Source: a virus. Taken from it: 64,000 nt of DNA. A program made the position numbers and the translations under genes. The notes under the pieces were generated by a model. That model was not told the origin of the DNA and searched no databases. It saw only the letters and a list, made by a program, of their open reading frames with translations. Positions 10,839 to 57,955 of this stretch are shown here, in pieces (the stretch's first letter is position 1; each line of letters starts with the position of its first letter). The stretch spans positions 1-64,000 of the IMG/VR virus record IMGVR_UViG_3300022723_000177; one strand, given 5' to 3'.

Positions 10839-10868
10839 GCTGAACCCTGATCCGAAAGGAACAAGGCA

Positions 10869-11915: not shown

Positions 11916-12251
11916 ATGGCAGAAGACGCTGCGGCCATCATCAATGAGGCCGCCACGAAGCGAGAGAAGAGTTCCGGCATCTCCGTGGGCGCGCCCAGCG
12001 CCGAGCGGAACCCCTTCCGCGAGATCCACGTCGTGGAGTTCGAGGCGCCCCCCTGCGAGCAATACCCTAAGGGCGCGATCCTCTACATCATGCCACACCA
12101 GGTGCAGAAGCACATGATGATGTACCCTGGTGGTCGTGTCCTCCGCGACATCAAGAAGGTCGTCCCCCGCGGCGCGCGGCCTTCAGGGCGTCGGGCGCGA
12201 GGCCACGTCGACCCGCAGACCTTCCTGCAGGGTGCGAAGGTGGAGCAGTAG
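11916..12251 (+). CDS. Hypothetical head-associated protein
   Basis: ggaggccccATG at 11916. The long inverted repeat 11834-11903 lies upstream. Confidence 0.45.
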   Translation: MAEDAAAIINEAATKREKSSGISVGAPSAERNPFREIHVVEFEAPPCEQYPKGAILYIMPHQVQKHMMMYPGGRVLRDIKKVVPRGARPSGRRARGHVDPQTFLQGAKVEQ

Positions 12252-12758: not shown

Positions 12759-13733
12759 ATGGCGAGCGACTTCCCGCCCATCAACCGAACGGAAGCCCAG
12801 ATCGTCGGACGAGTTTTCGAGGACGAGGTCCGCGATCTCATCGACATCTGGAACACCACCGAGCAGCGCCTGATCGAACTGGGGCGCGACCCGATCTTCT
12901 TCGCCTCGCTTGGCTCCGGCGCCAGTGGAGCCGCCGCGGCGCAGCAGCGCGCTACCGAGCTCATTCGCGAAGTGCGAAGCGCCCTACAATCGATGACCTC
13001 GGCCACCATCACCTGGTCCGACGCCCTGTTCGTTCAGGCCGGCGCCGCGGCTACGTTCACGGTGGAGAGTGCAGCGACACAGGGGCTGACTGCGGGGGCG
13101 TTGGGGGCACCGAACGCGGATTCGATCCGCCTCATCCTCGAGGATCTACTCACGGACACCGAGTTCGCCGAAAGCTCGGCACTTCGCACTATGCGTCGCT
13201 TCTACCGAAATACCCAGCAGACGGTGCTGCCGGAGGGAGTGATCAACGCGAACCTGGCGATCTCGGAGGCGAGGATGGAGAATGTGAGCCAGCGCTCGCG
13301 CCGCCTCGCGAACGAGTTCGACAAGGTCGTCGGCCAAGGCAAGTTCGTGCTGGTGAATGGCCAACGCTTCCAGCTCACCACCTACGCGGACCTGGTCGGT
13401 CGCACCCGCCTAGTAGAAGCGAATACCGTGGGATCGCTCCGAACCAACGTCGCGATGGGCAACGATCTGGTCCGGGTGTCCGACCACGGGAAGACAGACC
13501 CCAACTGCGACCGGTTCGCGGGGAAGGTGTTTTCGATCTCAGGGCAGAGCCGGCGATTTCCTCGCCTCCGCGAGGTTCCTCCCTTCCACCCCCGGTGCAA
13601 GCACATCCTGCTACCCTTCGTCACGGAGTTCAAGAGCCCCCGCGAGCTCGAGTTCGCGGAGGCCCGCAGCCGAGACCGTGTTGAGGCCGGCGTCAGCATC
13701 GAGGAGTTCTTCAGTGTCCGTGGCGCTTCCTAA
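12759..13733 (+). CDS. Phage head morphogenesis protein (Mu gpF / SPP1 gp7 family)
   Basis: C-terminal CDRFAGKVFS...PPFHPRCKHIL matches the Phage_Mu_F signature (PPxHxxCRC-type motif). Confidence 0.7.
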   Translation: MASDFPPINRTEAQIVGRVFEDEVRDLIDIWNTTEQRLIELGRDPIFFASLGSGASGAAAAQQRATELIREVRSALQSMTSATITWSDALFVQAGAAATFTVESAATQGLTAGALGAPNADSIRLILEDLLTDTEFAESSALRTMRRFYRNTQQTVLPEGVINANLAISEARMENVSQRSRRLANEFDKVVGQGKFVLVNGQRFQLTTYADLVGRTRLVEANTVGSLRTNVAMGNDLVRVSDHGKTDPNCDRFAGKVFSISGQSRRFPRLREVPPFHPRCKHILLPFVTEFKSPRELEFAEARSRDRVEAGVSIEEFFSVRGAS

Positions 13734-32516: not shown

Positions 32517-33038
32517 TCAGAAGATGCTCCGGCCCGCTTCTGCGAAGCAGGGGCCGACCGTGTCGAGATCCGTGCCGAACTCACCCGTGCCGGTGGTACA
32601 CTGCCCGCGTCCGGGGGTGAAGTTGCCCGACGCGTCCGTACCGAAGTAGCCCCACGACTGGACGATCCCGTCCCCATCGATGTCGGCCTGGGCGTCGATG
32701 GTGAACTGCTGTCCGACCACCGCGACGGCGTAGTTGAAGTACACGTTGCCCGTAGGCGCCCAACCGATCCTGTCGAAATCGACGCTGGGGGTCCACGGCT
32801 GCTTCTCCGAAGCGAGCGCGGTAGTGGGGTTCACCGCAGCCGCGACGTAGCGGCCGAACTCCGCCTCGTACGAGACCTCGGCCGTCCGGATCGCCGCGAT
32901 GTTCACCTTGCCTTCGGTGCTCTTCGCGGCCTTCTGGAACTTCAGAAAGTTCGGGATGGCGATGCTCGCCAGGATGCCCACGATTGCGACGCACACCATG
33001 AGCTCGATCAGAGTGAAACCGTTCTGTCGACGTACCAT
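32517..33038 (-). CDS. pilA: Type IV pilin (PilA-like major pilin with class III prepilin signal)
   Basis: MVRRQNG|FTLIELMVCVAIVGILASIAIPNFLKFQ gives the prepilin peptidase site G|F, Glu+5 and a hydrophobic alpha-1 helix, closely matching the Myxococcus xanthus PilA N-terminus. GGAGGA RBS 7 nt upstream of the ATG at 33038. C-terminal Cys pair. Confidence 0.85.
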   Translation of the reverse strand: MVRRQNGFTLIELMVCVAIVGILASIAIPNFLKFQKAAKSTEGKVNIAAIRTAEVSYEAEFGRYVAAAVNPTTALASEKQPWTPSVDFDRIGWAPTGNVYFNYAVAVVGQQFTIDAQADIDGDGIVQSWGYFGTDASGNFTPGRGQCTTGTGEFGTDLDTVGPCFAEAGRSIF

Positions 33039-33077
33039 TTTCGATCCTCCGTCTTCCGTCAATGTAGCCGTGTTCGG

Positions 33078-34141: not shown

Positions 34142-34550
34142 TGCTTCCTTCTTCGCCTCCTCCCGCTCCGGACGGCGGGCCCGCGCCTTGCGCTCCTTGC
34201 TCTTCCCGGGCGGCTTGCGCCGCGCCTTCTTCGAACCTCTTGCGGCCACTGTGTCCCCCTTTCAAGGATACGTTTCGGTGCGCGGCTTCAAAAACCTGAG
34301 AGATCTTTTCGTCGCCATCCAAGAAAAGTCTCTCCCGCTTCTCGCGCTGGATCTTCTCGTGGATCTCGACCGGGGTCGCCGCGAACGCGAACATGGTTCC
34401 GTATGGAGTGTAGAGATCCCATCCCGCGAGACTCCCGCCCGAGTAGATCGGCACCACCATGAACCTGTCCTCGAGCGTGACCGCGTTTGGTACCAGCGGC
34501 GGCCACTCCGCCTCCGCCAGCAGCTGCTCGAGACGCTCGTCGGGAGTCAT
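34125..34550 (-). CDS. Hypothetical protein
   Basis: MTPDERLEQLLAEAEW...; ATG at 34550 abuts the radical-SAM gene stop. Confidence 0.45.
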   Translation of the reverse strand: MTPDERLEQLLAEAEWPPLVPNAVTLEDRFMVVPIYSGGSLAGWDLYTPYGTMFAFAATPVEIHEKIQREKRERLFLDGDEKISQVFEAAHRNVSLKGGHSGRKRFEEGAAQAAREEQGAQGAGPPSGAGGGEEGSSFSGA

Positions 34551-35479
34551 GACACGAACATCCCACACGATGCGGCCACGTCTTCACCGACACGCTCGAT
34601 CACTTTGATCTTCGGCTTGTATCCAGCGAACATATGGAGCTCGCGCTCGATGGTCTGCCCGTAGTGTGTGCGTGCCACCCATGAGGACTCTTCGCTGTGC
34701 CCCTCGGCCGGCGGGTTATACCTGACGAAGGTGAAGTCAGCGCGGAGCCCCGCCTCGCGGACCGCTTTCGCGACGGCGACTGCGTCCGTCAGCGAATCGT
34801 TCTCGCCGCGGATCAGCGCGTAGTGGATCCGCACGATCTTCTTCGAGTGCTGCTGCCACTCCGCCAGGAGATCGAGCGCCATTGACGGATCCATCGCGCG
34901 CGGAAGCCAACGCCTTCGGAAGTCGGGGTCCACAGAGTAGAGTGAGTAGTAGATCTCCGGCTGCACGAACGGGAACATCTGCGGAAGCGTGATGTCCTCG
35001 AGCCCGAGCGCCTGGTCCTCGCGCTTCTTCGGCATGATCGTCGACACCAGGAACCGCGGCATCAGTCCGAGACCGCGGCCGGCGTCGTAGAGACCCTTGA
35101 AGATGTCCTGGCTCTTCTCGCGGAACACTTGGCTGTCGAGCGGCTCGCCGCGGGCCATGAAGTTGTAGTGGACCACGCGCGCACGAATGCCCCCGTCTAG
35201 GGCGCGGTCGCGCTCGATCGGGTCGAACACGTCGTAGAGCACGGCGCGTGCCTGCTCGAGGATCCGCGTGACCTCCAGATCCCGGTACCTGGTCTGCCCG
35301 GTCTGGGTCAGGTGACACATGCGGCAGGCCTGGGCGCAGCCCGTCTGAGTCGAGAGGTAGCAGGCGACGTAGTCGTCGTGGCGTCTGACGTAGCGAGCCT
35401 CGATCTTCCCGAGTGCCCTCTCCCACACCAGGTTCACGCTGTCATCAATCTCGCTGTCTTGCCGGATGTAGCCGCTCAT
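34547..35479 (-). CDS. Radical SAM enzyme, RlmN/Cfr-like (putative RNA C-methylating enzyme)
   Basis: ACYLSTQTGCAQACRMCH carries the CxxxCxxC 4Fe-4S/SAM motif in the RlmN/Cfr context (SSQxGCxxxCxFC). C-terminal ASCGMF resembles the conserved RlmN second-cysteine AACGQL motif. 310 aa, shorter than cellular RlmN. Confidence 0.7.
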   Translation of the reverse strand: MSGYIRQDSEIDDSVNLVWERALGKIEARYVRRHDDYVACYLSTQTGCAQACRMCHLTQTGQTRYRDLEVTRILEQARAVLYDVFDPIERDRALDGGIRARVVHYNFMARGEPLDSQVFREKSQDIFKGLYDAGRGLGLMPRFLVSTIMPKKREDQALGLEDITLPQMFPFVQPEIYYSLYSVDPDFRRRWLPRAMDPSMALDLLAEWQQHSKKIVRIHYALIRGENDSLTDAVAVAKAVREAGLRADFTFVRYNPPAEGHSEESSWVARTHYGQTIERELHMFAGYKPKIKVIERVGEDVAASCGMFVS

Positions 35480-37198: not shown

Positions 37199-37392
37199 CG
37201 CTCGAGAGTCGGGGCCATCGGGGCTCCGTGCGTCTGAGACCTGGACTCGAGCAAAAGCGTTCGCTGCTCACGGCCTTCGAGGTCCCGCGCATCCTCGGGG
37301 CGTACTGGGAAGCACGCGTCATACCGGAGCATGTCGAACGGGAAGTCACCCCTGCCGCTGACGGTAAATCGCACGATCTTCTTAGAAGCCAT
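37159..37392 (-). CDS. Hypothetical protein (77 aa)
   Basis: AAGGAG RBS on the minus strand 8 nt upstream of the ATG at 37392. Confidence 0.5.
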   Translation of the reverse strand: MASKKIVRFTVSGRGDFPFDMLRYDACFPVRPEDARDLEGREQRTLLLESRSQTHGAPMAPTLERWRSFGWVVELGT

Positions 37393-37942
37393 CTTGAGTC
37401 TCCTTCTTCGGGATCAGCGGGTGAAGCAGCACCGGCGCGTAGCCGATCGCCTCGGGACACACGTTCACGTAGCGCTTGTCAGGGAGCTTGTGGTAGTCGA
37501 TGCCACCGTATTCCCCCGTGACCCTCCAGGACGCTGAGATCGTCTTGCTGTGTACGTGCCCGTGGACGTTGATGCGCCCGCGGAGCTCGTCAGGATGGAT
37601 CGGCGCGTGCGAGAGCCACGCCTTCTGACCCTTCTTGCGTTTGTAGTAGACGAGCCCGAACACCTCTTCGAAGACCTTGAGATACTCCCAGGTCGGAAGG
37701 TGGTCGTGGTTCCCGCGCACCAGGAACTTCGTGCCGGGCAGCGAGCCGAGCTTCACGAGCGCCTCGCTAGAGAACGCCGAGTCCCCCAGGACCCAGACCT
37801 TGTCGCGCGGGTTCACCACCGAGCACCAGCCATCCATGAGGCACTGCTCGTGTTCCTCCATGGTCTCGAACGGGCGAAACTCCGTGATACGCTTGTGGCC
37901 GAAGTGGAGGTCGCTGATGGCCCACGTGTTGATCGGTTTCAT
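37382..37942 (-). CDS. Calcineurin-like metallophosphoesterase (Ser/Thr phosphatase family)
   Basis: ISDLHFGH, GNHD and GHVH motifs. ATG at 37942 with GGGAGGGGG upstream. Confidence 0.8.
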   Translation of the reverse strand: MKPINTWAISDLHFGHKRITEFRPFETMEEHEQCLMDGWCSVVNPRDKVWVLGDSAFSSEALVKLGSLPGTKFLVRGNHDHLPTWEYLKVFEEVFGLVYYKRKKGQKAWLSHAPIHPDELRGRINVHGHVHSKTISASWRVTGEYGGIDYHKLPDKRYVNVCPEAIGYAPVLLHPLIPKKETQDGF

Positions 37943-38238
37943 TCCCCCTCCCAAGCCTTCACCATCCGGCGCACGAACGAAAGCTCAGCGCCGGGCTGGG
38001 GCACTGCCGGGCCCGGGCGTACGCACCGCCGGCAGGTCTCCGGGTCGTTTCGGTCTTTGGTGTCTTCGCCGAACGCGGCACCCACAGCCTCTCCTAGCGC
38101 CTCGAGGTCGTCGAGCATTTTCGCGGCGCCATCACGCTCGCGCCCGCATACCTCGTCGACGGAGATCCGGGCGTCGAGGGCGTCGTAGGCACTGATCGCG
38201 GCGCGAGTCCGTGCGAGATCCGGGAGCTCGCGGCTCAT
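37939..38238 (-). CDS. Hypothetical protein (99 aa)
   Basis: ATGA-coupled to the downstream gene. Confidence 0.45.
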   Translation of the reverse strand: MSRELPDLARTRAAISAYDALDARISVDEVCGRERDGAAKMLDDLEALGEAVGAAFGEDTKDRNDPETCRRCVRPGPAVPQPGAELSFVRRMVKAWEGE

Positions 38239-45539: not shown

Positions 45540-47732
45540 TTGGCGGCCCGTCTCGCCTCCGGTGGGGCGGGCCGCATTGCTGAAGGACACCAGGTGAATA
45601 GCACCTACCCGACACACGAAGACGTTCTCCGTGTCCTGCACGCCCAGGGCTCGAAGTGGATCACCCTTGAAGTACTCGAGGCACACACGCGGATCGAACG
45701 AGACTGGCTCACAGCGGAAGGGGGCGACGAGACCTACCCCCGTATCGGCTTCAACAACGGTGTCTCCTGGTTCTTCGACAAAGACCGCCGTCCCGACATG
45801 AAGCACGGCTCCGGCAAGCAGAAGACTCACTGCGCTGGGGGCGTGCGCCGCACGCTGCTCGGGGACCTGGAGAAGGACACGCTGATCCTGTTCGAAGGTG
45901 AGCGCGACTGGCTCACGGCGCTGTCGCTCGGGTTCGACAACGCGATCTGCGCAGGCGGGATCCTGAACCTCGACGAGCACCAGTTCCAGCAGCTGGCGCA
46001 GAAAGCCGAGGTCGTGGTGTTCTTCGACAACGATGAGGAGGGGGTGAACGGAGCAAAGATCGTAGCTGCCCGTCTTCAGGACCACGGCTGTCTCGCCGCG
46101 AAGTGGGTCGTGCCGCCGATCGACGGCGACTTCTCCGAGTGGGTCGAGGGCTTCGAGGATGATCCGCGTGGCACTGTGCTGCACCGCATGACGAGCCAGG
46201 CGGAGAGGCTGAAGAAGGCCGACGCGAAGAAGATACTGAACGCCGGGACCAAGGCCAAGAAGAAAGACGACATCGTCGAGCATCCTTCGGATGAGTTCAC
46301 TACCTCGAGCGGCGACCTCGTCACATCCGTCTGGAGGCCGACCGATCCCGAGCACCCTCACCACGTAGACCTCGGAGGCAAGGCGGTGTTCGTGCGCCAC
46401 GACCTGGCCGCGTCCGAGAAGGCCGGGAGCCTGATCGTCGACTACATCAGCCGCTACACCGAGGCCCCAACGGAGACTGATGAGTTCGACGAAGTACCGG
46501 AGATCTACGGAGGTGGTCAGCGCGCGAAGAGCCACGCCCCAGACCGTCCGCCTGTCGTGGTACCTCTTGGAGGCCAGACCGTCAGCGACCGGATCATGGT
46601 ACTGCCGTCCGGGGCTCGCGAGCATGGATCGAGCGAGAAGCTCTGGGATGACGTGGTTGAGCTCATCGAGAAGTACTTCGTCTGTGCCCCGGCATTTGTT
46701 CACGCCATGGCTGCTTACACGTTTCTGACCTACCGCTATCGCGATGCGCGCTTCGAGGTGATCCCGTACCTCAGGGTGATCGGCCAGGCGGGAAGCGGAA
46801 AGACTCGATTCGCCCGCATCATGAAGGAGCTCTGCTTTCGCAGCCTGTTCGTCACGGGTATGCGTTCGCACCACATCTACCGAATCATCACCGGTTTCAA
46901 CGCCGGGGCCACGCTCGTGTTCGAGGAGTTCGACATGGGGACGCGCGGCGAAGAAAAGATGGAGTGGACCCGTATCCTCAACGCCGGGAACCAGTACGGC
47001 GTGAAGATCCCGCGGATGGGCGGCAAGAACTTCAGCGACGTCGAGTACTTCGACATCTTCGGTCCGAAGGTGATCTCGATGCACGAGGAGTTCGATGACG
47101 AGGGCCTGGCGCGTCGCTGCTTCGGAGTCGTGCTCGGGAAGATGGAGGTTCCCAAAGAGAAGTACTTCGCCGCTCTGCCGAACATCTTCTACCAGGAGAC
47201 GGCGATCCTCCGCGAGCGTTTGCTCGGGTGGCGATTCGCCAAGCGTGGGTTGCCTACGCGCACGCTCGGTGAAGAGCTCCAAGCTGGGATCAAGGGCGAG
47301 GTCTGGCAGACGGTGTTCCCGATGCTGGCCATGGTCCCCGCGGCTCGCCCCGAGGCGACAGCCGCGATCCTCGGGCTGGCGCAAAAGAGCCAGGCGCAGA
47401 TGAAGCTGGTGCGCGCCACCTCGCCCGTCGCTCAGGTGCTCGAGTCCACGATCTATGCTCATGACGATGACCGGGGCTGGACCGAGCTCCAGAACGTGCT
47501 CACCGAATTGCAACTGCGGGACCCCAACGCTAGGTGGACCACCCAGAAGGTCAACAAGTGTCTGCGAGAAGCGGGCCTAACCCCGCGCCGCACCATGAAG
47601 AAGATCGGCGAGCACATCTGGGTCGTCGATATTGACGACACCTTTCGTGGCGCCGTGGCCACGTACAAGCTGGAGATCGAGCAGCTCGCTCAAGAGAATG
47701 CGCGGGAGACTGCGCCGCAGGAGATCATGTGA
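45540..47732 (+). CDS. DNA primase (Toprim domain) fused to a P-loop NTPase (D5/VirE-like primase-helicase)
   Basis: Toprim LILFEGERDWLT ... VVVFFDNDEEG (E and DxD). Downstream VIGQAGSGKT Walker A. TTG start at 45540; the start is uncertain. Confidence 0.75.
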   Translation: MAARLASGGAGRIAEGHQVNSTYPTHEDVLRVLHAQGSKWITLEVLEAHTRIERDWLTAEGGDETYPRIGFNNGVSWFFDKDRRPDMKHGSGKQKTHCAGGVRRTLLGDLEKDTLILFEGERDWLTALSLGFDNAICAGGILNLDEHQFQQLAQKAEVVVFFDNDEEGVNGAKIVAARLQDHGCLAAKWVVPPIDGDFSEWVEGFEDDPRGTVLHRMTSQAERLKKADAKKILNAGTKAKKKDDIVEHPSDEFTTSSGDLVTSVWRPTDPEHPHHVDLGGKAVFVRHDLAASEKAGSLIVDYISRYTEAPTETDEFDEVPEIYGGGQRAKSHAPDRPPVVVPLGGQTVSDRIMVLPSGAREHGSSEKLWDDVVELIEKYFVCAPAFVHAMAAYTFLTYRYRDARFEVIPYLRVIGQAGSGKTRFARIMKELCFRSLFVTGMRSHHIYRIITGFNAGATLVFEEFDMGTRGEEKMEWTRILNAGNQYGVKIPRMGGKNFSDVEYFDIFGPKVISMHEEFDDEGLARRCFGVVLGKMEVPKEKYFAALPNIFYQETAILRERLLGWRFAKRGLPTRTLGEELQAGIKGEVWQTVFPMLAMVPAARPEATAAILGLAQKSQAQMKLVRATSPVAQVLESTIYAHDDDRGWTELQNVLTELQLRDPNARWTTQKVNKCLREAGLTPRRTMKKIGEHIWVVDIDDTFRGAVATYKLEIEQLAQENARETAPQEIM

Positions 47733-48718
47733 GCTTCAGGCCCTACATGCATGTGGAGAGGCTTGGCCACCCCGAGGTTGATGGCATCGAGATCGGCACC
47801 GTTCACGTCTTCCCCAAGCTTGACGGCACCAACGCTAGCGTCTGGGTCGAGTACGGCGACGACTCACCAGAGCTCCACGCCGGCTCTAGGCGGCGGCACC
47901 TGACACTCGAGGCGGACAACCACGGGTTTTGTCGGTGGGTCCACGAACAGTCGGCGGATCCGAGCTCACCTCTGCAGAAGCTGGACCAGCGCCATAGTGG
48001 GCGTGACTGGATCCTCTACGGCGAGTGGCTCGTGCCCCACACGATCAAGAAGTACCGCGACGACGCGTGGCGCCAGTTCTATGTGTTCGATGTCTACGAC
48101 CGCCTCTACGATCAGTACATCCCGTTCGAAGAGTATGAGCCTGAGCTCACCTCGGCTGGGCTCAATGTAGTCTACCCTCTCGCGATCGTGACGAACCCCG
48201 ACGACGCTGCGCTTCAGCGCCTGGTCAACCAGAACACCTACCTCATGCTCGACGGGCAGGGCGCCGGCGAGGGCGTGGTGCTCAAGAACTACGACTTTAC
48301 CAACGCGCACGGCCGTCAAACGTGGGCGAAGATCGTTCGCAACGAGTTCAAGGAAGACGCGCGCAAGGCAATGGGTGTCTCCGAGATCGACGGCAAGGAG
48401 CGCATCGAGACCAAGATCGCTCAGACGCTTTGCACTTCGCACTTGATCGACAAGACGCGACTCATGGTAGAGAAGATGGCGTTTGCCCAAAACGTTGATG
48501 GCTACGCCGAGCAGGATCCTGAGGCCTACGAACAGTGGCTCGCCAAGAACCGCGGAACGATCATCCCTCGCCTGCTCCAGACCGTGTTCTACGAGCTCGT
48601 ACGCGAGGAGATCTGGCACATGCTTAAGCTCGAGAAACGGCTGCCCACCATCGACTTCAAGCGTCTCCAGCAGGAGACCACTCTGGCAGTGAAGCGTCAC
48701 TGCTCGGACTTGTTCTGA
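47729..48718 (+). CDS. ATP-dependent polynucleotide ligase, Rnl2-like (RNA ligase or nick-sealing ligase)
   Basis: Motif I FPKLDGTNASVW (KxDGTN, compare T4 Rnl2 KIHGTN). 329 aa, similar to Rnl2 length. Not a classical KxDGxR DNA ligase. Confidence 0.6.
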   Translation: MSFRPYMHVERLGHPEVDGIEIGTVHVFPKLDGTNASVWVEYGDDSPELHAGSRRRHLTLEADNHGFCRWVHEQSADPSSPLQKLDQRHSGRDWILYGEWLVPHTIKKYRDDAWRQFYVFDVYDRLYDQYIPFEEYEPELTSAGLNVVYPLAIVTNPDDAALQRLVNQNTYLMLDGQGAGEGVVLKNYDFTNAHGRQTWAKIVRNEFKEDARKAMGVSEIDGKERIETKIAQTLCTSHLIDKTRLMVEKMAFAQNVDGYAEQDPEAYEQWLAKNRGTIIPRLLQTVFYELVREEIWHMLKLEKRLPTIDFKRLQQETTLAVKRHCSDLF

Positions 48719-48966
48719 TGCTGGTCGTGAAGGTGGAGCTCTGGCCGTTCGGCAACGAGGAGTCCAAGCGCACGCTCGGCACGATGCGGATCTCCAACGA
48801 CGCTACCGGGACAACGACACGCGGGAACTACAACGTCCGCGTCTTCAGCAGGGACGGCCGCGAAACGCACAAGGTGCGGGTCGAAAACTATCCCCGAAAA
48901 GCGCTCAGCGTCTGGGCGCTAGTGTATCAAGCGCTCGTACACTGCAGTTTCAGGAAGAATCTGTGA
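48718..48966 (+). CDS. Hypothetical protein (82 aa)
   Basis: ATGCTG overlap coupling with the upstream ORF. Confidence 0.45.
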   Translation: MLVVKVELWPFGNEESKRTLGTMRISNDATGTTTRGNYNVRVFSRDGRETHKVRVENYPRKALSVWALVYQALVHCSFRKNL

Positions 48967-49346
48967 TGGCCTGGCCGCAGGACGTCACCCGCGCGGATCT
49001 TTCGATCACCTACTACAAGGGCAGCGGCCCGGGTGGGCAGAACAAGAACAAGCGTGACACCGCCTGCAGGATCGTCCACGCGCCTACAGGGTTGTGGGCG
49101 ACCAGCGAGACACACCGCACGCAACCCCAGAACAAGACCGAGGCGTTCCGCCGCCTGGCCAAGAAGCTCGTCCCGATCATGAAGGGCGACAAGAAGGGTC
49201 CGGGGCTTCCGACCGAACGCATCCGCACCTACCACGAGAAGCGGGGCGTGACTGACACCCGGGTTCCTGGGCGAACCTTCGAGTACAAGAGAGTGCTCGA
49301 CGGCGACCTGGACGAAATCCTGAACGAACTGATGGAGGCACGATGA
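48963..49346 (+). CDS. Peptidyl-tRNA hydrolase domain protein (GGQ motif), ArfB/ICT1-like ribosome rescue factor
   Basis: YKGSGPGGQNKNKRDTACRIVHAPTGL...ETHRTQPQNKTEAF matches the class-I release factor GGQ domain (SGPGGQxVNKTDSAVRITHIPTGI...SQHKNK). Stand-alone 127 aa with a basic C-terminal tail, as in ArfB. Confidence 0.75.
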   Translation: MMAWPQDVTRADLSITYYKGSGPGGQNKNKRDTACRIVHAPTGLWATSETHRTQPQNKTEAFRRLAKKLVPIMKGDKKGPGLPTERIRTYHEKRGVTDTRVPGRTFEYKRVLDGDLDEILNELMEAR

Positions 49347-49843
49347 ACCGCAACCCGACTCCCGACGAGATGCTCGCACTGCTCGAGGCTGAAGAGCAGC
49401 TCGAGCCGATCGGCCCCGAGCCTGGCGTGATCGCCGAGCGCGAAGCGCGCGAAGCCCGCGAGGAAGAGGACGCAGCCGGCGGCATGCGCCCGCACACGAA
49501 GGAGAGCGCGGCCGAGCTCGAAGGCGTGGACCAGTTCCTGCCGCAGTTCCATCGCGGCGAGATCCTCAATTGGCGAGGCTGGTTCTTCCAGGTGCTCCAC
49601 CCGTCGAACGCGAATGGGCACATGGTGCTCCAGCCTGTAGGCCCCTCTAAGAAGCTCGTGAAGAGGATCCGACACAAGATCGAGAACCAGACGAAGGGCT
49701 TGGCCAAGGTCGAGACTCGCGATCGCAAGCGCGCCACCCGCAAGATGGCTCGTCAGAAGCGCGCCCTGCGTCGGCATACCAAGCGCGTGGCCGCCCGCCG
49801 CGCGGCGGAGAAGGCCCAAGCAGGCGAGAAGGTGTCGGCGTGA
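49343..49843 (+). CDS. Hypothetical basic protein (166 aa)
   Basis: ATGA-coupled to the ArfB-like gene. Confidence 0.45.
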   Translation: MNRNPTPDEMLALLEAEEQLEPIGPEPGVIAEREAREAREEEDAAGGMRPHTKESAAELEGVDQFLPQFHRGEILNWRGWFFQVLHPSNANGHMVLQPVGPSKKLVKRIRHKIENQTKGLAKVETRDRKRATRKMARQKRALRRHTKRVAARRAAEKAQAGEKVSA

Positions 49844-50544
49844 TGGCGTCGTCTTCGTTGGCAGTGCAGTACCCCGCTGAGTACCGCGTAAAAGGCACGC
49901 TCCAGTCAGTGCAGATCCCTGAGGACGGGCACGGAACCGGGAACATCTGGGACCTCCTCGCGCTCGGCGGTCTGCTGACCAGACACCACCACCAAAAGGC
50001 GGTGCTTGGGTGGGGTGGTGGAACCGTCGCTGCGCTGATTCGCTCGTTCCAGCCGTACTCGGTTTTCGACGCTGTGGAGGTCAACCGAGACGCTATCGAC
50101 GTCGCCTACTCGTGGGGTGTAGACTACCAGCCCCCTGGCCTTTGCCCTACGGACGTCACCGAATGGATCTTCGAGGAGTTCAAAGCGCACCTCCAAAGTG
50201 GCACCAGTCCGAGCTCCAGGCCCTACTCGTTGATCATCGAGGACACGTTCAAAGGCTACGAGAAGCCGGAGGGTTTCCCGGTGCCGAACTACCGAATGCT
50301 TAGCACTTTGACCGACACGCTCGTCGTGAACACGGTCGGTCGCGCGGCGCCGCGGACGCGGGCTATTCTGAAGGATCTCTATCCACGCGTGGTGAAGGTT
50401 GAGCTCGGTGGCCTGCTGAACCGCGTGTTCATCGCATCCACCCTCCGTGAAGAATGTACTGGGAAGGCGCTGCGGGCAGCGGCCTCAAAGCATGGGTGCT
50501 TCCAGCGAATTCTCGCCAACAACGTAAGGATCTCTCTGACATGA
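49840..50544 (+). CDS. Rossmann-fold protein, possibly SAM-dependent methyltransferase or spermidine-synthase-like
   Basis: KAVLGWGGGTVAALI ... DAVEVNRDAIDVA resembles motif I and the post-I acidic residue of class-I methyltransferases. Confidence 0.4.
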   Translation: MMASSSLAVQYPAEYRVKGTLQSVQIPEDGHGTGNIWDLLALGGLLTRHHHQKAVLGWGGGTVAALIRSFQPYSVFDAVEVNRDAIDVAYSWGVDYQPPGLCPTDVTEWIFEEFKAHLQSGTSPSSRPYSLIIEDTFKGYEKPEGFPVPNYRMLSTLTDTLVVNTVGRAAPRTRAILKDLYPRVVKVELGGLLNRVFIASTLREECTGKALRAAASKHGCFQRILANNVRISLT

Positions 50545-50963
50545 AGTGGTTTGATTGGGTCTTCGTCTGCATCATCATCGCCGGTTTTCTGGTGTTCTCG
50601 AGCCGCGGGGAGGCGTCTTGTCCTGCCGAGGTAGCTACGAACGTCGCGGCCCGCGCCGTAGGCGTGAACGATTGGGCGTGTGGTATCTGTACCTTGCCGC
50701 TCGGCCCAGGCGAGCTCGAGATCCAGTCGGTCGAGCTCTTCTTCGTCGACACTGGCGAACGCATCGATTGTTTCTCGATCACCAACGACGCCATGATCGT
50801 GGCGGGTTTTTCTCTGCCAACCTCGTCGAAGATCCGGTACATCAAAGCGAAGACCTACAGTGGGGCTAACTGCAGCGGACGGCCCAGCGTGGTGCCTAGC
50901 CCGAACCAGTGTTCCATTCGGCTCGAAGCGCCGTCGCCGCCGATGTTGACCGAGGTTCCCTAA
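50541..50963 (+). CDS. Membrane-anchored or secreted Cys-rich protein
   Basis: MKWFDWVFVCIIIAGFLVFSS N-terminal transmembrane/signal segment. Start at the internal ATG at 50541. Confidence 0.45.
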   Translation: MKWFDWVFVCIIIAGFLVFSSRGEASCPAEVATNVAARAVGVNDWACGICTLPLGPGELEIQSVELFFVDTGERIDCFSITNDAMIVAGFSLPTSSKIRYIKAKTYSGANCSGRPSVVPSPNQCSIRLEAPSPPMLTEVP

Positions 50964-51583
50964 TGGCCATCATCGACCTCGAGGACATCGTACCCAAGCC
51001 TCCGCCGAACTTCGTACCTCCCGACCACCAGGATAGTGAGAAGTGGGTGCGGGACGTGATCGCCTTCCACGAGCACATGCTCCAGAATTCCCCGAGCGAG
51101 CCGACCATCCAAAACGCTGGGGTGCGGAACCTTCGGCTCGACCTCATGGACGAAGAGTACGGCGAGTACCGTGGGGCTCTTGAGGACGACGATCTCGTCG
51201 AAATCGCGGATGCCTGCGTAGACATGATCTACGTCGCGATCGGGACCATGGTCGCGTACGGCATCCGGCCCGAGCCCATCTGGGACGAGGTCCACCAGAC
51301 GAACATGCAGAAAGAGCCGAAGGGCGCCAAACGCAAGGCGACGAAACCCAAGGGCTTCCGCAAGCCCAACGTCGCACGGCTGCTCCGGCTCCAGGGCTTC
51401 CGCTGCCCGATGAGTCACGCCAACACGCGGTGTGAACGTGTCCGCTCCCACCCCGGTGACTGTTTCTCGTGGGCGTGGATCAAGGTCGATGGACCCGCCG
51501 TGAAACGCGGGTTCTGGTTCGGATACCGCGGCTCCCTGCTGCTCGAGCCCGGCGACACCAACATCCCGGAGGACATCCCGTGA
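50963..51583 (+). CDS. MazG-like nucleoside triphosphate pyrophosphohydrolase
   Basis: EEYGEYRGALEDDDLVEIADACVDMIYVAIGTMVAYGIRPEPIWDEVHQTNMQK matches the MazG all-alpha NTP-PPase core (E..E...E..D metal ligands). ATG at 50963. Confidence 0.7.
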   Translation: MAIIDLEDIVPKPPPNFVPPDHQDSEKWVRDVIAFHEHMLQNSPSEPTIQNAGVRNLRLDLMDEEYGEYRGALEDDDLVEIADACVDMIYVAIGTMVAYGIRPEPIWDEVHQTNMQKEPKGAKRKATKPKGFRKPNVARLLRLQGFRCPMSHANTRCERVRSHPGDCFSWAWIKVDGPAVKRGFWFGYRGSLLLEPGDTNIPEDIP

Positions 51584-51608
51584 AGCTTCAAGTCGCCTTC
51601 GTCGAGAG

Positions 51609-52010
51609 GTGGACCCCTTGACCCACGTCGCCCACTTCCGGAAGGGCCGGACGCACCACGTTCTGCTTCTCGATGAGATCCACCCAGCGGTATGGGTCTT
51701 GGAGGGTGGCCACCTCGAGCACTTCAGGCTCGTACTCGGGCACGCCGGCATCCTCGGCTACCGCCAGACTGACACCAAACCAATCGAGGTGGCCACCCTC
51801 CAAGAGACGCTGCTGAAGCTGGGCAACCACGAAGACGTGAGGAAAGGCGAGCCCCTCACCTACTGCACCTACATGCATCTGACAGCTGAGCTCAAGGAGC
51901 TCTTCGAGGTCGGGTGGATACGAACAAGCTCGGTCATCTCGACCCTACAGATCCGTGACCGGCTGAAGCTCCTGGAGGAAACATGTCCGTCGAAGTCATT
52001 GGATTCGTAG
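51609..52010 (+). CDS. Hypothetical protein (133 aa)
   Basis: ORF-track call. Overlaps the kinase start. Confidence 0.4.
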   Translation: MDPLTHVAHFRKGRTHHVLLLDEIHPAVWVLEGGHLEHFRLVLGHAGILGYRQTDTKPIEVATLQETLLKLGNHEDVRKGEPLTYCTYMHLTAELKELFEVGWIRTSSVISTLQIRDRLKLLEETCPSKSLDS

Positions 52011-52669
52011 GCCGCCCTGGTTGCGGCAAGAGCACGTTGGCCGAATACCTCCTCGATGAGTACGGCTACATCGAGATCAACCTGCCCGCGAAGCTGCGCG
52101 AGGTCGTAGCGGTCGCCTTCGACTGGGATGTTGGGCGCCTGAACGACCTCGAGTACAAGGAGGCCCACGACAAGAGGTGGGCCCGGGCGAATGGGGACTA
52201 CCTGGTGCGGCGCGAGGCCATGATCGAGCTCTCGCAGGCGCTGCGTAGGTGCGACCCGAACTTCCTCACCAAGCACGCCGAGCGGGAGATCAACGACTGC
52301 TGCGCCCTGGGCCACGATCTGTTCGTGCTCCCCGAGATCCGAAGCGCCGCGGATGTAGCGCTTGTGCGCGCGCTCGGCGGAGAGTTCTGGAAGATCGAGA
52401 AGATCGGCGGCCCGCACGGCGCAACTGACCTCGACGAGCTCCCGGGCGACCTGATCCCCGACAACATCCTGCGCGCTCGTCATGGGCACGCGCGCGACCT
52501 GTTCGACCAGGCCGACATCATCCTCGAGAATCCACCCTCGCGGTCGGGCGTTGTGCGTTCCCCGGCGGATGGTGACTGCGGGGTGGTGCAGGTCGGCGGC
52601 GAGTGTGAACACCACTCTATCGATTGCGCCACGCCGGAAGCGTGGGATCGGGCGAGCAAGAACTCATGA
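51983..52669 (+). CDS. P-loop kinase (dNMP-kinase or polynucleotide-kinase-like)
   Basis: VIGFVGRPGCGKSTLAEYL Walker A at the N-terminus. 228 aa. Confidence 0.6.
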   Translation: MSVEVIGFVGRPGCGKSTLAEYLLDEYGYIEINLPAKLREVVAVAFDWDVGRLNDLEYKEAHDKRWARANGDYLVRREAMIELSQALRRCDPNFLTKHAEREINDCCALGHDLFVLPEIRSAADVALVRALGGEFWKIEKIGGPHGATDLDELPGDLIPDNILRARHGHARDLFDQADIILENPPSRSGVVRSPADGDCGVVQVGGECEHHSIDCATPEAWDRASKNS

Positions 52670-53127
52670 CGTGTTCTGAGTGCGAGCGGGTGGCCAGCTA
52701 CATGGCTGCTGATCCAGAACTCTATCGCGGTGATGAGCGGGCCTGCTCCGCGCACCGCGCACGAACCCGAGACGTGCCAGCTAACCCACTCTCTCAGTCG
52801 ACAAGGGCCAACCTAGTGGGTACATCGGGTAGGAGCGCCGCTGGCACCCGAACGTCGGGGTCATCAGACGTGACGGCGGGAGAGACCGCACCTGTTTCCG
52901 GGGGTGAGTGGGACGACGTCTTTTGGCGGCGCTGTTCACGGGCGCTCGGCGCACCGACGGAGAATCCGAGCGGTACGCCCCACCACCCTCTTCTGGTTCT
53001 GAAGTCTCTCCGCACCAAGTGGTGGAGTGAGGGAAGGCAAGCAACACTGAATGATCTCAAGAAGATCAAGGAGAAGCGAGATGCTGAGCAAGACAAACAT
53101 CAAGACGAAGATCGACCGAGGACGTGA
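52666..53127 (+). CDS. Hypothetical protein with N-terminal CxxC
   Basis: MTCSECERV... ATGA-coupled. Overlaps the next gene by 47 nt, so one of the two starts may be wrong. Confidence 0.35.
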   Translation: MTCSECERVASYMAADPELYRGDERACSAHRARTRDVPANPLSQSTRANLVGTSGRSAAGTRTSGSSDVTAGETAPVSGGEWDDVFWRRCSRALGAPTENPSGTPHHPLLVLKSLRTKWWSEGRQATLNDLKKIKEKRDAEQDKHQDEDRPRT

Positions 53128-53410
53128 CGGAAAGGGGCGGGGTAGCAAGGGCGTCCACTCCATCACCTTCGAGTTCGCTCGCCCCGACAACCGGGTGACG
53201 TCTACCCCGCTGCCGGTGCCGAGCTTCCGCGTCTTCAAGCGCAACGCGGAGTTCGCCTACTGCGAGCTACTCATGAACCTCGCGGAAGGCAAGGTGGCGA
53301 AGGCCGCCGAGCTCGCCGGCACGGACCGCTCCAGCTTCTACGCGCTGATGTATCGCTGCGGCTTCCGCAGGAAGAGCGGCAGGGCGTTGTCGCTTGGGGC
53401 GCGGCTGTAG
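53081..53410 (+). CDS. Small DNA-binding protein with Fis-type C-terminal HTH
   Basis: KVAKAAELAGTDRSSFYALMYRCG is Fis/NtrC-like HTH_8. gagaagcgagATG RBS. Confidence 0.5.
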   Translation: MLSKTNIKTKIDRGRDGKGRGSKGVHSITFEFARPDNRVTSTPLPVPSFRVFKRNAEFAYCELLMNLAEGKVAKAAELAGTDRSSFYALMYRCGFRRKSGRALSLGARL

Positions 53411-53778
53411 TGGAGCGGGATCCCACCGAAGAAGAGGTGTACCTGGCCTTGCGGGCCAGCAGTAGGGTCATGCGGGACTTCTCCTATACCGCGGCCTGCG
53501 TGGCCATCGGCGTCGGACTCATCGTCGGCTTCATCGCCTACGAGCTCGGGGTCAAGCGCGGCTACGCCCTTTGCGCGATGGAGGCCATCGAAACCGCCTC
53601 AACGCCCCCGCTCGCTGGGGACGAGGTGGTCGTGGAAGCCTCATGGCCTGGCACTTTGCACGTTGACACCAACGAGGACGAGCCGGCCACTCCCCACTGT
53701 ATCACTGCTCTGATCTGCTTCACCCCGTACGATCGGGCGCCGAAGATGGAGGCCAAGCACCATGCGGATCGCGATTGA
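53410..53778 (+). CDS. Small membrane protein
   Basis: AACVAIGVGLIVGFIAY transmembrane segment. GTG start. Confidence 0.4.
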   Translation: MERDPTEEEVYLALRASSRVMRDFSYTAACVAIGVGLIVGFIAYELGVKRGYALCAMEAIETASTPPLAGDEVVVEASWPGTLHVDTNEDEPATPHCITALICFTPYDRAPKMEAKHHADRD

Positions 53779-54196
53779 CTTCGATGGAGTGCTCCACAGC
53801 TACACGAGCGGCTGGACGGGGCAGGTCCCCTACGATCCTCCTGTCGACGGAGCGCAGCAAGCGATGGCGAAGTTGCTCGAGCAGGACCACAAGCTAGTGG
53901 TCTTCACCTGTCGAATTAACGCGACGGAAAAAGACGACCTGAATTCGTGGCAGGTACACAATGTGCTCCGCCAGTGGTTTCGGGCCAACGGCTTCCCTTC
54001 GGAGTTCTGGGATGATGACAAGCACGGGAGTGCTGTATTCACGACAAGCGACCTCGTCGAGATCACCGGGACCAAGCCCCACGCCGACATCTACATCGAC
54101 GACCGGGGTATGCGCTTCGAAGGTCACTGGAACGACGTCCTGCACGACCTTCAGGTCGAGACCGAGACGACCCCGTGGCACAAGCAGCCGGCCTGA
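53762..54196 (+). CDS. HAD-superfamily phosphatase (polynucleotide 3'-phosphatase / 5'-nucleotidase-like)
   Basis: MRIAIDFDGVL (DxDGV motif I), LVVFTCR (motif II Thr), K...ADIYIDDR (motifs III/IV). Confidence 0.6.
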   Translation: MRIAIDFDGVLHSYTSGWTGQVPYDPPVDGAQQAMAKLLEQDHKLVVFTCRINATEKDDLNSWQVHNVLRQWFRANGFPSEFWDDDKHGSAVFTTSDLVEITGTKPHADIYIDDRGMRFEGHWNDVLHDLQVETETTPWHKQPA

Positions 54197-54356: not shown

Positions 54357-54638
54357 ATGCATCGAGGAGACACAGGAATGACCGGTCTGCACGCTCCGGC
54401 CAAACAGGCAATCCGCCTGTGGCGGTGGCAAGACGCCCCGCCTCTGGTGCGAGACTTCTGCGAGTATCGGGGAGGCTACAACGATGTGCTCTGGGTGATG
54501 CTACTGCCCGAAGGCATGAAGCCCGCCGACGTGCCTCTCTCCCCGATCAATTTTTGCAGCGTGGGGATCCAAGAGCTCCACACGAAGCAGTACCTGATCA
54601 CCGGTTACAACCCCGGTGAGGACGAGGAAACCGAATGA
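54357..54638 (+). CDS. Hypothetical protein (93 aa)
   Basis: Coding-like ORF with ggagacacaggaATG RBS. Confidence 0.45.
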   Translation: MHRGDTGMTGLHAPAKQAIRLWRWQDAPPLVRDFCEYRGGYNDVLWVMLLPEGMKPADVPLSPINFCSVGIQELHTKQYLITGYNPGEDEETE

Positions 54639-55087
54639 AGATCTGGAACGTCCACTACCGGAAAACGGACGGGCTCCGCGTGCTCGAGCGCGGAGGCGTC
54701 ACGCTTTCATGCGGGTATGACCCGGAGACAGAGAAGCTTCACATCGGCGTCGCTGTCTGCTGCAGCAAGGACCACTACCACAAGCGGCGTGGCGCGTCGA
54801 TCGCGAGCGGTCGGCGAGACTTGGGTATGTTGTGCGATCGCCCTGACCTCGAGCCCGACCTCTACTACCGCGTGAACTGCCCGGCCGGCACCCCCATCAG
54901 CCGCATCTGGGCGGCACTCGATGGTACAGCTGCTGTGGCCAGGGCGCTCTACTCGAGGAGGGGCGAGGATCTCGACATGTTTTTCCTGCGAAAGGGTCCA
55001 CTGCCGGACACCGAGTTGCTGCAGACCGCGCTCAGCGGATACTTCGGCGAGGAAGAGAACGTCGAAGTCTCGGTGCATCGGGCGTGA
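54635..55087 (+). CDS. Hypothetical protein (150 aa)
   Basis: ATGA-coupled. Confidence 0.45.
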   Translation: MKIWNVHYRKTDGLRVLERGGVTLSCGYDPETEKLHIGVAVCCSKDHYHKRRGASIASGRRDLGMLCDRPDLEPDLYYRVNCPAGTPISRIWAALDGTAAVARALYSRRGEDLDMFFLRKGPLPDTELLQTALSGYFGEEENVEVSVHRA

Positions 55088-55380
55088 GTTCGCCGCAAGA
55101 GGACTATTGCCCCACGCGTGTCGTTTCCTACCCGCTCATGCTCGGGTATGGGTATCAGACCGCGCTCATCCCGCAGGGCTCCGAGATCCTGCACTTCGCG
55201 GGACACTACGGCTGCCCTATGATCTGGGTCAAGGCAAAAGTGATGGCGGAGAGCGTGGACCTGGGAGTCACGCTTTTCATCTGTCCAGACAACGCCGATC
55301 TACCTGAAGAGAAGCTCGACCACATTGGAACCTCTCACATCAACGGCATCGTGATGCACCTTTTCCGGAGGCCCGAATGA
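55084..55380 (+). CDS. Hypothetical protein (98 aa)
   Basis: Overlap-coupled. Confidence 0.45.
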   Translation: MSSPQEDYCPTRVVSYPLMLGYGYQTALIPQGSEILHFAGHYGCPMIWVKAKVMAESVDLGVTLFICPDNADLPEEKLDHIGTSHINGIVMHLFRRPE

Positions 55381-56033
55381 TCACCTGTGTCTCGGGCTCG
55401 CGCACCGTCAGGGATCGCGAGCTCGTGTATGATCTGCTCGACCGCACTCCCTGGGTGCCTACGCGTGTGAACCACGGGGCCGCAGGAGGGGTCGATCGCC
55501 TCGCACGTTCGTGGGCGCGGCTCAACGGCATCCCCGAGAGCCCCTGGCTCCCGCGCTGGATGGCGAGCGGGGGCGATGCAGGCAAGAGCGTCGACAAGGC
55601 CGCTGGTCTCAAACGCAACGCGCTGATGGTGCGGGCCAGCCAAGCGTTTGTAGCGATCTGGCATATGCCCTCCCGCGGCACCAAGCACGCCATCGGTTGC
55701 GCGAAGCACGGCGGGATCGTTCGCATGGTCTGGCAAAAGGCGCCACAGCGAGATTGGATGTTCCAGCTTTCGCTGCCTTGTCACACCGGCGAGCACTGGG
55801 TCGTAGGAAAGCCGGGCAAGAGCGAAGGACTGAATATCGTCACCGAAGTGTACGAGGAGCACCCCTACTCTCCGAAGGCCTGGGGATGGGACGGTGAGAA
55901 GAAGGTGTTCTTCCGCGTGACCGGCAAGGGCAGCGCCTACGAGAAGCGGATCGAGATCAACCCCGACGCTAGCGCCTGGCTGGCTGCAGACACTCCCCCC
56001 TACAACGAGATCGGAGACCCCAATGGGCGATGA
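55377..56033 (+). CDS. SLOG-fold protein (DUF2493 / DprA-Smf-like Rossmann domain) with C-terminal extension
   Basis: ITCVSGSRTVRD...HGAAGGVDRLARSWARLNGIP...RNALMVRASQAFVAIW...GTKHAIGCAKHGG matches the DUF2493/SLOG pattern. Confidence 0.55.
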   Translation: MITCVSGSRTVRDRELVYDLLDRTPWVPTRVNHGAAGGVDRLARSWARLNGIPESPWLPRWMASGGDAGKSVDKAAGLKRNALMVRASQAFVAIWHMPSRGTKHAIGCAKHGGIVRMVWQKAPQRDWMFQLSLPCHTGEHWVVGKPGKSEGLNIVTEVYEEHPYSPKAWGWDGEKKVFFRVTGKGSAYEKRIEINPDASAWLAADTPPYNEIGDPNGR

Positions 56034-57917: not shown

Positions 57918-57955
57918 GAGGCTCCGCCCCATCGGTGGAGCCTCTTTTCGTTTCG
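57918..57955 (+). terminator. Rho-independent terminator (gaggctcc-12 nt-ggagcctc followed by ttttcgtttcg)
   Basis: 8-bp perfect stem plus T-rich tail, directly downstream of the 57863 stop. Confidence 0.6.

Follow-up and report, generated by a model that had tools for sequence, protein, structure and literature searches.

The stretch of DNA analysed here (the window) comprises 64,000 nucleotides (nt) of a virus, positions 1 to 64,000 of IMG/VR record IMGVR_UViG_3300022723_000177, and our subject is a region of it which encodes an RNA ligase and, one small gene further downstream, a short protein with a GGQ motif. The window has a G+C content of ~63% and resembles the genome of an uncultivated tailed phage. 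A first-pass annotation, made from the sequence alone, had described a cluster of five genes for translation rescue and RNA-end healing at 47729-54196. All five open reading frames (ORFs) and their motifs were confirmed in our analysis, save that the gene for the GGQ protein is likelier to start at 48966 than at 48963. Together with ORF82, which separates the first two of them, the five are as follows.

47729-48718, + strand: ATP-dependent RNA ligase of the Rnl2/Rnl5 clade, 329 amino acids (aa) (PF09414 6.7e-19; phrog_548 'RNA ligase' 5.7e-39)
48718-48966, + strand: ORF82, a small protein (phrog_8231, unknown function, 1.9e-10), with 1-nt overlaps with the ligase stop and the GGQ start
48966-49346, + strand: stand-alone GGQ protein, predicted peptidyl-tRNA hydrolase, 126 aa (RF-1 domain 1.8e-19)
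50963-51583, + strand: MazG-like all-alpha nucleoside triphosphate (NTP) pyrophosphohydrolase (PRA-PH 7e-17; phrog_671 6.9e-27), with a C-terminal extension of ~65 aa
51983-52669, + strand: divergent T4 gp1-type deoxynucleoside monophosphate (dNMP) kinase (phrog_139 'dNMP kinase' 2e-21), Walker A motif GRPGCGKS at residue 10
53762-54196, + strand: small capless HAD phosphatase of an unclassified family (phrog_1238 2.5e-19), DFDGV at residue 6

As judged from its sequence and predicted fold, the GGQ protein is a truncated class-I release factor (RF), codon-blind and belonging to a phage-associated family. It matches the Pfam RF-1 domain with 70.2 bits (cut-off 35), carries GPGGQ at residues 22-26, and its chain begins 21 residues before GGQ. 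The gene most likely starts at ATG 48966 and not at GTG 48963, because the 'MAWP' N-terminus of the family and an independent gene call agree on the former. The protein could be aligned with T. maritima RF1 (residues 194-322, E = 3e-18), with PrfH (1e-6) and with ICT1 (~2e-3). Its scores against the NCBIfam models were 78.5 bits for RF1 (cut-off 400), 75.5 for RF2 (cut-off 370), 48.4 for PrfH (TIGR03072, cut-off 166.65) and 33.9 for ArfB (NF006718, cut-off 100), the ArfB model aligning with only 30 residues (8-37). An AlphaFold2 (AF2) model of the protein, with a predicted local distance difference test score (pLDDT) of 84, retrieved RF1, RF2 or mitochondrial release factors at all of Foldseek ranks 1-43 and PrfH at ranks 44 and 49; neither ArfB nor ICT1 was among the best 50 matches. 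The chain consists of domain 3, a switch-loop region ~11 residues shorter than that of RF1, and, from domain 4, the beta-hairpin and helix at the C-terminus, while domain 1 and the codon-reading domain 2 are missing (no match to PCRF/PF03462).

The first-pass annotation had recognised a stand-alone GGQ hydrolase, which stands, and had labelled it ArfB/ICT1-like, which proved to be wrong. The protein does resemble ArfB and ICT1 in being small, stand-alone and without codon recognition. However, its C-terminus is the RF1/RF2 segment 'ERIRTY...VTDHR...LDG.LD' and its last 40 residues have a net charge of -1, in contrast to the basic mRNA-channel tail of those factors. Nor is it an inactive relic of an RF-1 domain, as GGQ and 13 further alignment columns are invariant in 28 family members.

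The family to which the protein belongs contains ~65 short proteins (118-163 aa, 40-60% identity) encoded on phage-like contigs, the longest of 128 kb. At least 374 relatives were found in IMG/VR, some of which are full-length release factors; of the 80 GGQ loci that were fetched, ~60 carry the gene in a short stand-alone form and make up 29 distinct clusters. Bacterial genomes gave no close relative among the matches listed, the best of which reached 31-42% identity, and the family looks virus-associated. Short proteins annotated as 'RF-1 domain' are carried by the cluster C mycobacteriophages, and 139 bp of the GGQ gene with 72-73% identity to those phages represent the sole DNA match of the window, which has no close DNA relative among deposited phages. 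The phage RF-1 proteins of phrog_3122 and phrog_20323 are likewise of the short GGQ type and are 52-57% identical to the window's protein over its N-terminal 60 residues. The Bixzunavirus and cluster C proteins match only the GGQ half, whereas the window's family retains the RF C-terminal segment and, in the window, adjoins an RNA ligase. We found no functional study of short phage 'RF-1 domain' proteins in the literature.

The product of 47729-48718 is, on sequence comparison, an RNA ligase of a kind that resides in replication and nucleotide-metabolism regions, and its earlier assignment was borne out at the level of the Rnl2/Rnl5 clade. It scored 69.1 bits against Pfam RNA_ligase (PF09414, cut-off 27), with residues 25-203 covering positions 3-171 of the 171 in the profile. 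These residues form the nucleotidyltransferase domain, which is followed by a ~125-aa C-terminal domain conserved in the subfamily, the same domain order as in T4 Rnl2. Motif I is KLDGTN at residue 30, and K30, D32, G33, N35, R54, E99, F120, D121, E181, K186 and K201 are invariant between four phage homologues, residues which we take to correspond to the essential ones of T4 Rnl2. A four-sequence profile matched the Naegleria RNA ligase (NgrRnl, Rnl5; 2e-6) and T4 Rnl2 (8e-5) in the PDB, where it had no significant match to a DNA ligase, the best being 8UCF with E = 0.19. Among characterised genomes the best relative is gp003 of Cellulophaga phage phi19:3 (43% identity over the full length), followed by the ligases of Clostridium phage Amboise and of the Herelleviridae (phage K ORF21). 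Members of the subfamily are numerous: with an alignment as query, IMG/VR yielded at least 440 relatives (a single-sequence scan gave none). They are encoded in replication modules, where their neighbours are primase, exonuclease, DnaB and Pol III alpha. The possibility that the ligase serves solely as the DNA ligase of the phage was considered and rejected, since relatives adjoin true ATP-dependent DNA ligases as well as RtcB and the profile favours RNA ligases.

The order of the genes and their surroundings in relatives could be observed directly, as could the domain identities and the intactness of the catalytic motifs. Only the ligase and GGQ genes of the five are near-adjacent, via ORF82 and its two 1-nt overlaps. 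The neighbourhoods of relatives were compared from both sides, using 29 distinct contexts of the GGQ gene (30 with the window) and the 80 closest ligase loci (1.2 Mb), with the neighbours of ligase relatives described from 20 distinct contexts. A PF09414 ligase lies within 5 kb of a short GGQ gene in four of the 30 GGQ contexts, namely the window, L004, L058 and the L049 cluster, and these four ligases have four different, non-orthologous architectures. On a rough estimate, which assumes and does not measure a density of ~2x10^4 PF09414 genes in the ~7x10^10 bases of IMG/VR, ~0.2 such co-locations would be expected by chance among 29 contexts, a number that the four exceed.

The best single case of a GGQ factor within a T4-type heal-and-seal set is L058 (IMGVR_UViG_3300027914_001163, a 191-kb contig). 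Its positions 9923-12868 encode a GGQ protein of 137 aa, an RNA ligase of 439 aa that matches PF09414, a 103-aa ORF and a true Pnkp (AAA_33 kinase with HAD_PNKP, 1e-41); stops and starts overlap along the cassette. In the L049 cluster an Rnl5-type ligase (OB fold plus PF09414) is 4 kb from the GGQ gene. In three contexts a Ro60/TROVE gene and a short GGQ gene are 1-10 kb apart: L004 (13148-14521), where the TROVE gene adjoins the PF09414 RNA ligase, L006/L008 (1-170) and L009 (7510-8931). RlaP in L012, cREC in L010 and AAA_33/KTI12-like kinases in L011, L013, L014 and L043 are also near GGQ genes. On the ligase side, RtcB occurs within 1 kb of ligase relatives in four of the 20 contexts (L099, 7744-8976; L105, 11600-12793; L130, 7860-9059; L160, 11796-13016), so two RNA ligases of opposite end chemistry stand side by side in those phages, and a separate ATP-dependent DNA ligase adjoins the relative in two of the 20. 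The other neighbours of ligase relatives include ribonucleotide reductase, helicases, DnaB, a 5'-3' exonuclease, dGTP diphosphohydrolase, MazG and PhoH. One ORF beside a ligase relative (loci L096-L173) matches a Thoeris anti-defence Tad2-like domain at 2e-27.

On balance we lean slightly towards a reading in which the ligase, ORF82 and the GGQ protein constitute a plausible rescue-and-reseal pair resembling PrfH-RtcB, with MazG and the kinase on the one hand and the HAD phosphatase on the other forming separate groups. The biochemical activities, and the cooperation of GGQ protein and ligase, are what we infer. When mRNA, tRNA or rRNA is cut during infection, ribosomes stall with no stop codon in place; the GGQ protein would hydrolyse the peptidyl-tRNA on these ribosomes, and broken RNA whose ends are 3'-OH and 5'-phosphate would be resealed by the ligase. 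Potentially, the two represent the phage counterpart of PrfH-RtcB, with another hydrolase architecture and another ligase chemistry.

The pairing is plausibly a variant of a known idea, rescue plus repair, for which there are precedents in the phage RNA-repair toolkits (PMC7824862) and in the bacterial PrfH-RtcB2 system, where ribosome rescue is followed by rRNA repair, the two being coupled in biological conflict (PMC9304027, PMC6514570). As in the latter, an RF-derived GGQ hydrolase that is unfit as a normal terminator is encoded beside an RNA ligase. There are also clear differences between the two systems. PrfH keeps a domain 2/4-like sensor, whereas the window's protein starts ~20 residues before GGQ. 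The window's ligase is predicted to be ATP-dependent and to join 3'-OH to 5'-phosphate ends, whereas RtcB depends on GTP and links 5'-OH ends to those with a 3'-phosphate or cyclic phosphate. PrfH-RtcB2 is a conserved two-gene operon, whereas linkage of the kind seen in the window is sporadic (4/30 GGQ contexts, 0/80 ligase loci) and the window's pair is encoded by a phage.

Several observations weigh against cooperation of the ligase and the GGQ protein. An RNA ligase is not nearby in 26 of the 30 GGQ contexts, no GGQ gene was found within 10 kb in any of the 80 closest ligase loci, and the four ORFs on either side of GGQ genes encode mostly DNA polymerases, helicases, RecA, ribonucleotide reductase, Thy1 and dUTPase. 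No homologue of ORF82 adjoins the GGQ or ligase genes of relatives, and on the same ground we rejected the idea that ORF82 partners the GGQ protein across relatives or supplies a domain which the latter lacks. Overlaps of 1 or 4 nt run throughout the block from the primase gene to MazG, so the coupling is not specific to the ligase-GGQ pair. The GGQ protein would also have to bind ribosomes without the help of domains 1 and 2. Lastly, most anticodon nucleases leave 2',3'-cyclic-phosphate and 5'-OH ends, which an Rnl2-type ligase cannot join without the prior action of a kinase.

The last point has consequences for the RNAs on which the ligase might act. Ligases of the Rnl2 type require a 3'-OH and a 5'-phosphate, and polynucleotide kinase (PNK) is lacking; the natural substrates would therefore be breaks made by metal-dependent RNases such as PIN/VapC toxins, or ends healed by other enzymes. 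Cuts of the PIN type can be ligated directly and would be the likeliest substrate with no kinase at hand. The candidate end-healing enzymes are the HAD phosphatase and a calcineurin-type phosphoesterase encoded 10 kb away on the - strand (37382-37954; Metallophos, phrog_547 2.6e-52). Calcineurin-fold enzymes, such as lambda phosphatase and the phosphatase domain of C. thermocellum Pnkp, can open 2',3'-cyclic phosphates.

A possible, if rather doubtful, alternative is that the ligase and the GGQ protein are coincidental neighbours which act independently, their adjacency being due to the dense packing of accessory genes in an early operon. The GGQ protein would then be a general non-stop rescue factor that sustains translation during host mRNA decay, and the ligase would seal RNA or RNA-DNA nicks linked to replication or have an unrelated RNA task. 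The absence of GGQ genes from the 80 ligase loci suits this explanation, as do the replication and nucleotide-metabolism genes that predominate around GGQ genes (the Bixzunavirus RF-1 gene, for example, is between those of DnaE polymerase and a UvsX-like recombinase), the location of the ligase subfamily in replication modules and the overlapping junctions across the whole block. However, coincidence fits less well with four types of RNA ligase within 5 kb of short GGQ genes (4/30 contexts, against ~0.2/29 expected at the assumed density), with the GGQ-ligase-Pnkp cassette of L058 and with the TROVE, RlaP and cREC genes near GGQ genes, and the RtcB genes beside ligase relatives indicate RNA repair over replication.

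It is improbable that the GGQ protein is a takeover or regulatory factor which manipulates translation, for instance by triggering premature peptide release on host ribosomes or by titrating host proteins that interact with RF, such as PrmC or RF3. Such a role would be in keeping with the lack of a stalled-ribosome sensor of known type (there is neither an ArfB tail nor domain 2 of PrfH or RF), with the position of the gene within an early operon and with the virus association of the family, in which short proteins on phage-like contigs match at 45-60% identity versus 31-42% for bacterial matches (among those listed). However, GGQ and the C-terminal motif of RF are strictly conserved, which argues for real ribosomal catalysis, indiscriminate release would hurt phage translation too, and the recurring RNA-repair neighbours suit rescue better.

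Turning from the rescue-and-reseal pair to the remaining three genes, MazG and the kinase are, in terms of homology, an ordinary deoxynucleotide-pool pair, and would manage the supply of deoxynucleotides for phage DNA synthesis. The MazG pyrophosphohydrolase had been identified correctly: it scored 62.1 bits (cut-off 21.3) against the PRA-PH/MazG-like Pfam model, and its closest solved structure is the MazG-like D. radiodurans DR2231 (2.7e-9). The Walker A motif reported for the kinase is present. However, the role in RNA-end healing that had been attached to it fell away, since by sequence the product of 51983-52669 is a dNMP kinase of the T4 gp1 type and not a polynucleotide kinase, with no likeness to PNK beyond the P-loop. 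The protein itself had only sub-threshold P-loop matches in Pfam (DNMK, PF21448, 16.8 bits; cut-off 27.1). A word-indexed homologue search returned the query alone and exhaustive phmmer was used instead, which identified 546 relatives. The profile of a 50-sequence family matched the T4 dNMP kinase 1DEK at 2e-26, and 49 of the 50 relatives match Pfam DNMK. No Pnkp was among the best 60 of the 219 PDB matches of this profile at E<=1, and comparison of the family with the true Pnkp of L058 by hhalign gave a probability of 4.7% over 30 P-loop columns only.

G10, G15, K16, R77 and R120 are invariant in the kinase family. The window's enzyme, although akin to T4 gp1 as its MazG is to DR2231 and the phage MazG/dNTP pyrophosphatases, is divergent: its P-loop has GKS where the family has GKD or GKT, E118 and D124 are swapped, and residues 184-228 form a 45-aa C-terminal extension with five Cys/His residues that is absent from relatives. 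There is no second kinase candidate in the window, where the only other P-loop is that of the primase-helicase. With no polynucleotide 5'-kinase encoded in the window, the complete T4-type heal-and-seal pathway is absent, and the ligase, kinase and phosphatase named in the first-pass annotation do not make up the T4-type set.

For the HAD phosphatase, the motifs and fold that had been recognised were corroborated, and specific homology to the 3'-phosphatase of Pnkp was not. No Pfam family, HAD_PNKP included, matched the protein itself, and HAD_SAK_2 gave no match at E<=0.01. A total of 511 homologues were found, and all four HAD motifs (DxD, S/T, K, DD) are invariant across 53 sequences, as are D6, F7, D8, G9, V10, K105, D113 and D114. 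In the PDB, the profile matched two hypothetical capless HADs, 1XPJ (3e-9) and BT0820 (3e-7), and 5'(3')-deoxyribonucleotidases (~1e-3), with no Pnkp up to E = 10. The fold predicted by AF2 (pLDDT 90) is that of a capless, Rossmann-like HAD, for which Foldseek returned BT0820, the phage AfhF arabinose-1,5-diphosphate phosphatase, GmhB and HisB-N, and the T4 Pnkp phosphatase only at rank 24 (E = 0.2, TM-score 0.38). By hhalign, the similarity to the Pnkp phosphatase had a probability of 64% and was confined to motifs I-II.

Among the 53 HAD relatives, three match Pfam HAD_PNKP (PF25109) weakly and 28 match HAD_SAK_2 (PF18143), also weakly (best 1.4e-5) and in greater number than any other HAD family. 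A survey of jumbo phages described the 'Swiss Army Knife' (SAK) HAD as a stand-alone RNA-repair phosphatase (PMC7824862). In L006-L008 the gene that immediately follows the GGQ gene encodes a HAD homologue with 41% identity. As a separate observation, a HAD homologue (E = 4e-12) at 1338-1787 of L131 is directly upstream of the ligase, the sole ligase-HAD adjacency among the 80 loci. The substrate of the window's enzyme may be a small phosphomonoester, that is a nucleotide or sugar phosphate, or it may be an RNA 3'-phosphate; correspondingly, the enzyme could be a nucleotidase, a sugar-phosphate phosphatase or a stand-alone RNA 3'-phosphatase.

The window therefore shares only a part of the T4 system in which Pnkp and Rnl1/Rnl2 act against PrrC. 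Alike are the phage ATP-dependent RNA ligase (Rnl2 8e-5) and the presence of a HAD in the same operon; unlike T4, the window has no polynucleotide kinase and its HAD is no detectable member of HAD_PNKP, and a true Pnkp beside GGQ and ligase genes was seen only in the other phage contig, L058. What stands of the counter-defence module originally proposed is a release-factor-type hydrolase beside an RNA ligase; the five-gene combination recurs nowhere examined. A module of five products, in which the kinase and HAD would heal RNA ends like T4 Pnkp and the ligase would seal them, is very improbable: all five genes do lie in one operon within 6.5 kb, the nearest Pfam family of the HAD relatives is the RNA-repair HAD_SAK_2, homologues of the HAD (L006-L008) and of MazG (L005) are encoded directly downstream of GGQ genes, and the L058 cassette exists, but the kinase is of the T4 gp1 type with PNK likeness limited to the P-loop, MazG is DR2231-like, the HAD matches neither HAD_PNKP nor HAD_SAK_2 and is structurally nearest to sugar-phosphate phosphatases, nine unrelated ORFs lie between the five, and the combination is absent from all 29 GGQ contexts and all 80 ligase loci (the latter having the HAD family in one, MazG in two and DNMK in at most one).

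From the structural block on the + strand (1-31.5 kb) the window passes through a short - strand block into the replication block, again on the + strand, from 38.5 kb. The interval of interest is within a ~20-kb replication operon, a run of ~30 overlapping genes which begins at or before ~43.1 kb and ends at a terminator. The further features of this operon to which we refer are listed below.

45540-47732, + strand: Toprim primase with P-loop GQAGSGKT (Toprim_2 3.5e-11, PHROG primase matches), whose stop overlaps the ligase start by 4 nt
49343-49843, + strand: ORF166, no Pfam or PHROG match, overlapping the GGQ stop by 4 nt
49843-50544, + strand: ORF233, no Pfam, PHROG or NCBIfam match, with a Rossmann-like G-rich motif VLGWGGGT
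55377-56033, + strand: YAcAr/SLOG-domain protein (PF10686 8.7e-08), a member of the operon, with the GGQ gene 6 kb away
57918-57944, + strand: strong intrinsic-terminator-like hairpin with an 11-bp stem, 8 G-C pairs and a T-rich tail

The genes for the primase, ligase, ORF82, GGQ protein, ORF166, ORF233, ORF140 and MazG are joined by 1- or 4-nt overlaps at every junction, and the block from ORF109 to the YAcAr gene is packed as tightly. The hairpin, the only convincing terminator, is probably the end of the long operon. Rather than a discrete cluster, the five genes initially singled out are five of the 14 ORFs of the interval, all on the + strand. Because they are scattered in one long overlapping operon, their closeness is no more than the operon structure gives, and given such uniformly tight overlaps, clustering as such says little. 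We are inclined, if by no great degree, to regard the interval as part of a long, translationally packed early or replication operon in which the annotated genes fall into separate functional groups and do not form one module.

Two of the small neighbouring ORFs deserve comment. ORF166 has an acidic N-terminus, and its last 61 residues are highly basic (23 K/R, net charge +18). Speculatively, this tail recalls the ribosome-binding tails of rescue factors, and the protein could have a role in ribosome or RNA binding or help the GGQ protein; no conserved basic-tailed protein was found downstream of GGQ genes in the 29 contexts, and ORF166 has no homologue beside those genes. In ORF233 the VLGWGGGT motif is followed by an acidic strand end, resembling the class-I methyltransferase or spermidine-synthase fold. 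An assignment as a PrmC-like or other methyltransferase was rejected, the sole match being an insignificant one to METTL13 (E = 0.15, phmmer against the PDB).

Relatives of the YAcAr protein are encoded near GGQ genes elsewhere, at a distance of 2 kb in L005 (12307-12696) and of 9 kb in L018 (19107-19976). The ORF directly upstream of the L004 GGQ gene (9290-9781) resembles YAcAr by eye and has no Pfam match. The 411-nt gap that follows the kinase gene (52670-53080) is the only long gap of the operon and gave no Rfam match at E<=1. It may contain part of an uncalled ORF (52666-53127), which has an ATGA overlap with the kinase stop and a Cys-rich start, MTCSECERV...C..H. A KTDGLR motif in a 150-aa ORF (54635-55087) was taken as chance, the protein being too short for a ligase.

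Searches of the whole window for tRNA and tmRNA genes, and against Rfam, were negative. The portal protein is ~30% identical to those of Pseudomonas and Rhizobium phages, and the Pol A protein is ~24-26% identical to counterparts in many phages that span many host groups. The same genes recur on one 53.6-kb Logan contig and on one 65.8-kb JGI contig. The short - strand block includes a radical-SAM/Fe-S protein (34547-35479; phrog_27142 9.4e-90, with a weak match to Pfam Radical_SAM), and a 181-aa ORF on the - strand (32517-33062) has a type IV pilin-like prokaryotic N-terminal methylation motif (PF07963 2.3e-10), which may be a hint on the host envelope.

A broader proposal can be put forward tentatively. 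The short codon-blind GGQ hydrolases might be a widespread phage family that represents the rescue arm of phage RNA-repair toolkits, acting here with the Rnl2-like ligase, and perhaps with a SAK-like HAD 3'-phosphatase and ORF166, to clear and mend ribosomes or tRNAs that host RNase defences have hit; the set would be an analogue of PrfH-RtcB that is borne by a phage and uses an ATP-dependent ligase. Should the ligase and the GGQ protein act separately, the region would consist of ordinary accessory genes of a replication block. If they do cooperate, phages would own a rescue-then-repair system for translation machinery that has been hit by RNA-cleaving defences, the PrfH-RtcB principle would be extended to viruses with another ligase chemistry, and the many phage proteins annotated as 'RF-1 domain' would gain a first function. 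A release factor cut down to domain 3 and the C-terminal hairpin would also represent a minimal system for the delivery of GGQ to the peptidyl-transferase centre without decoding.

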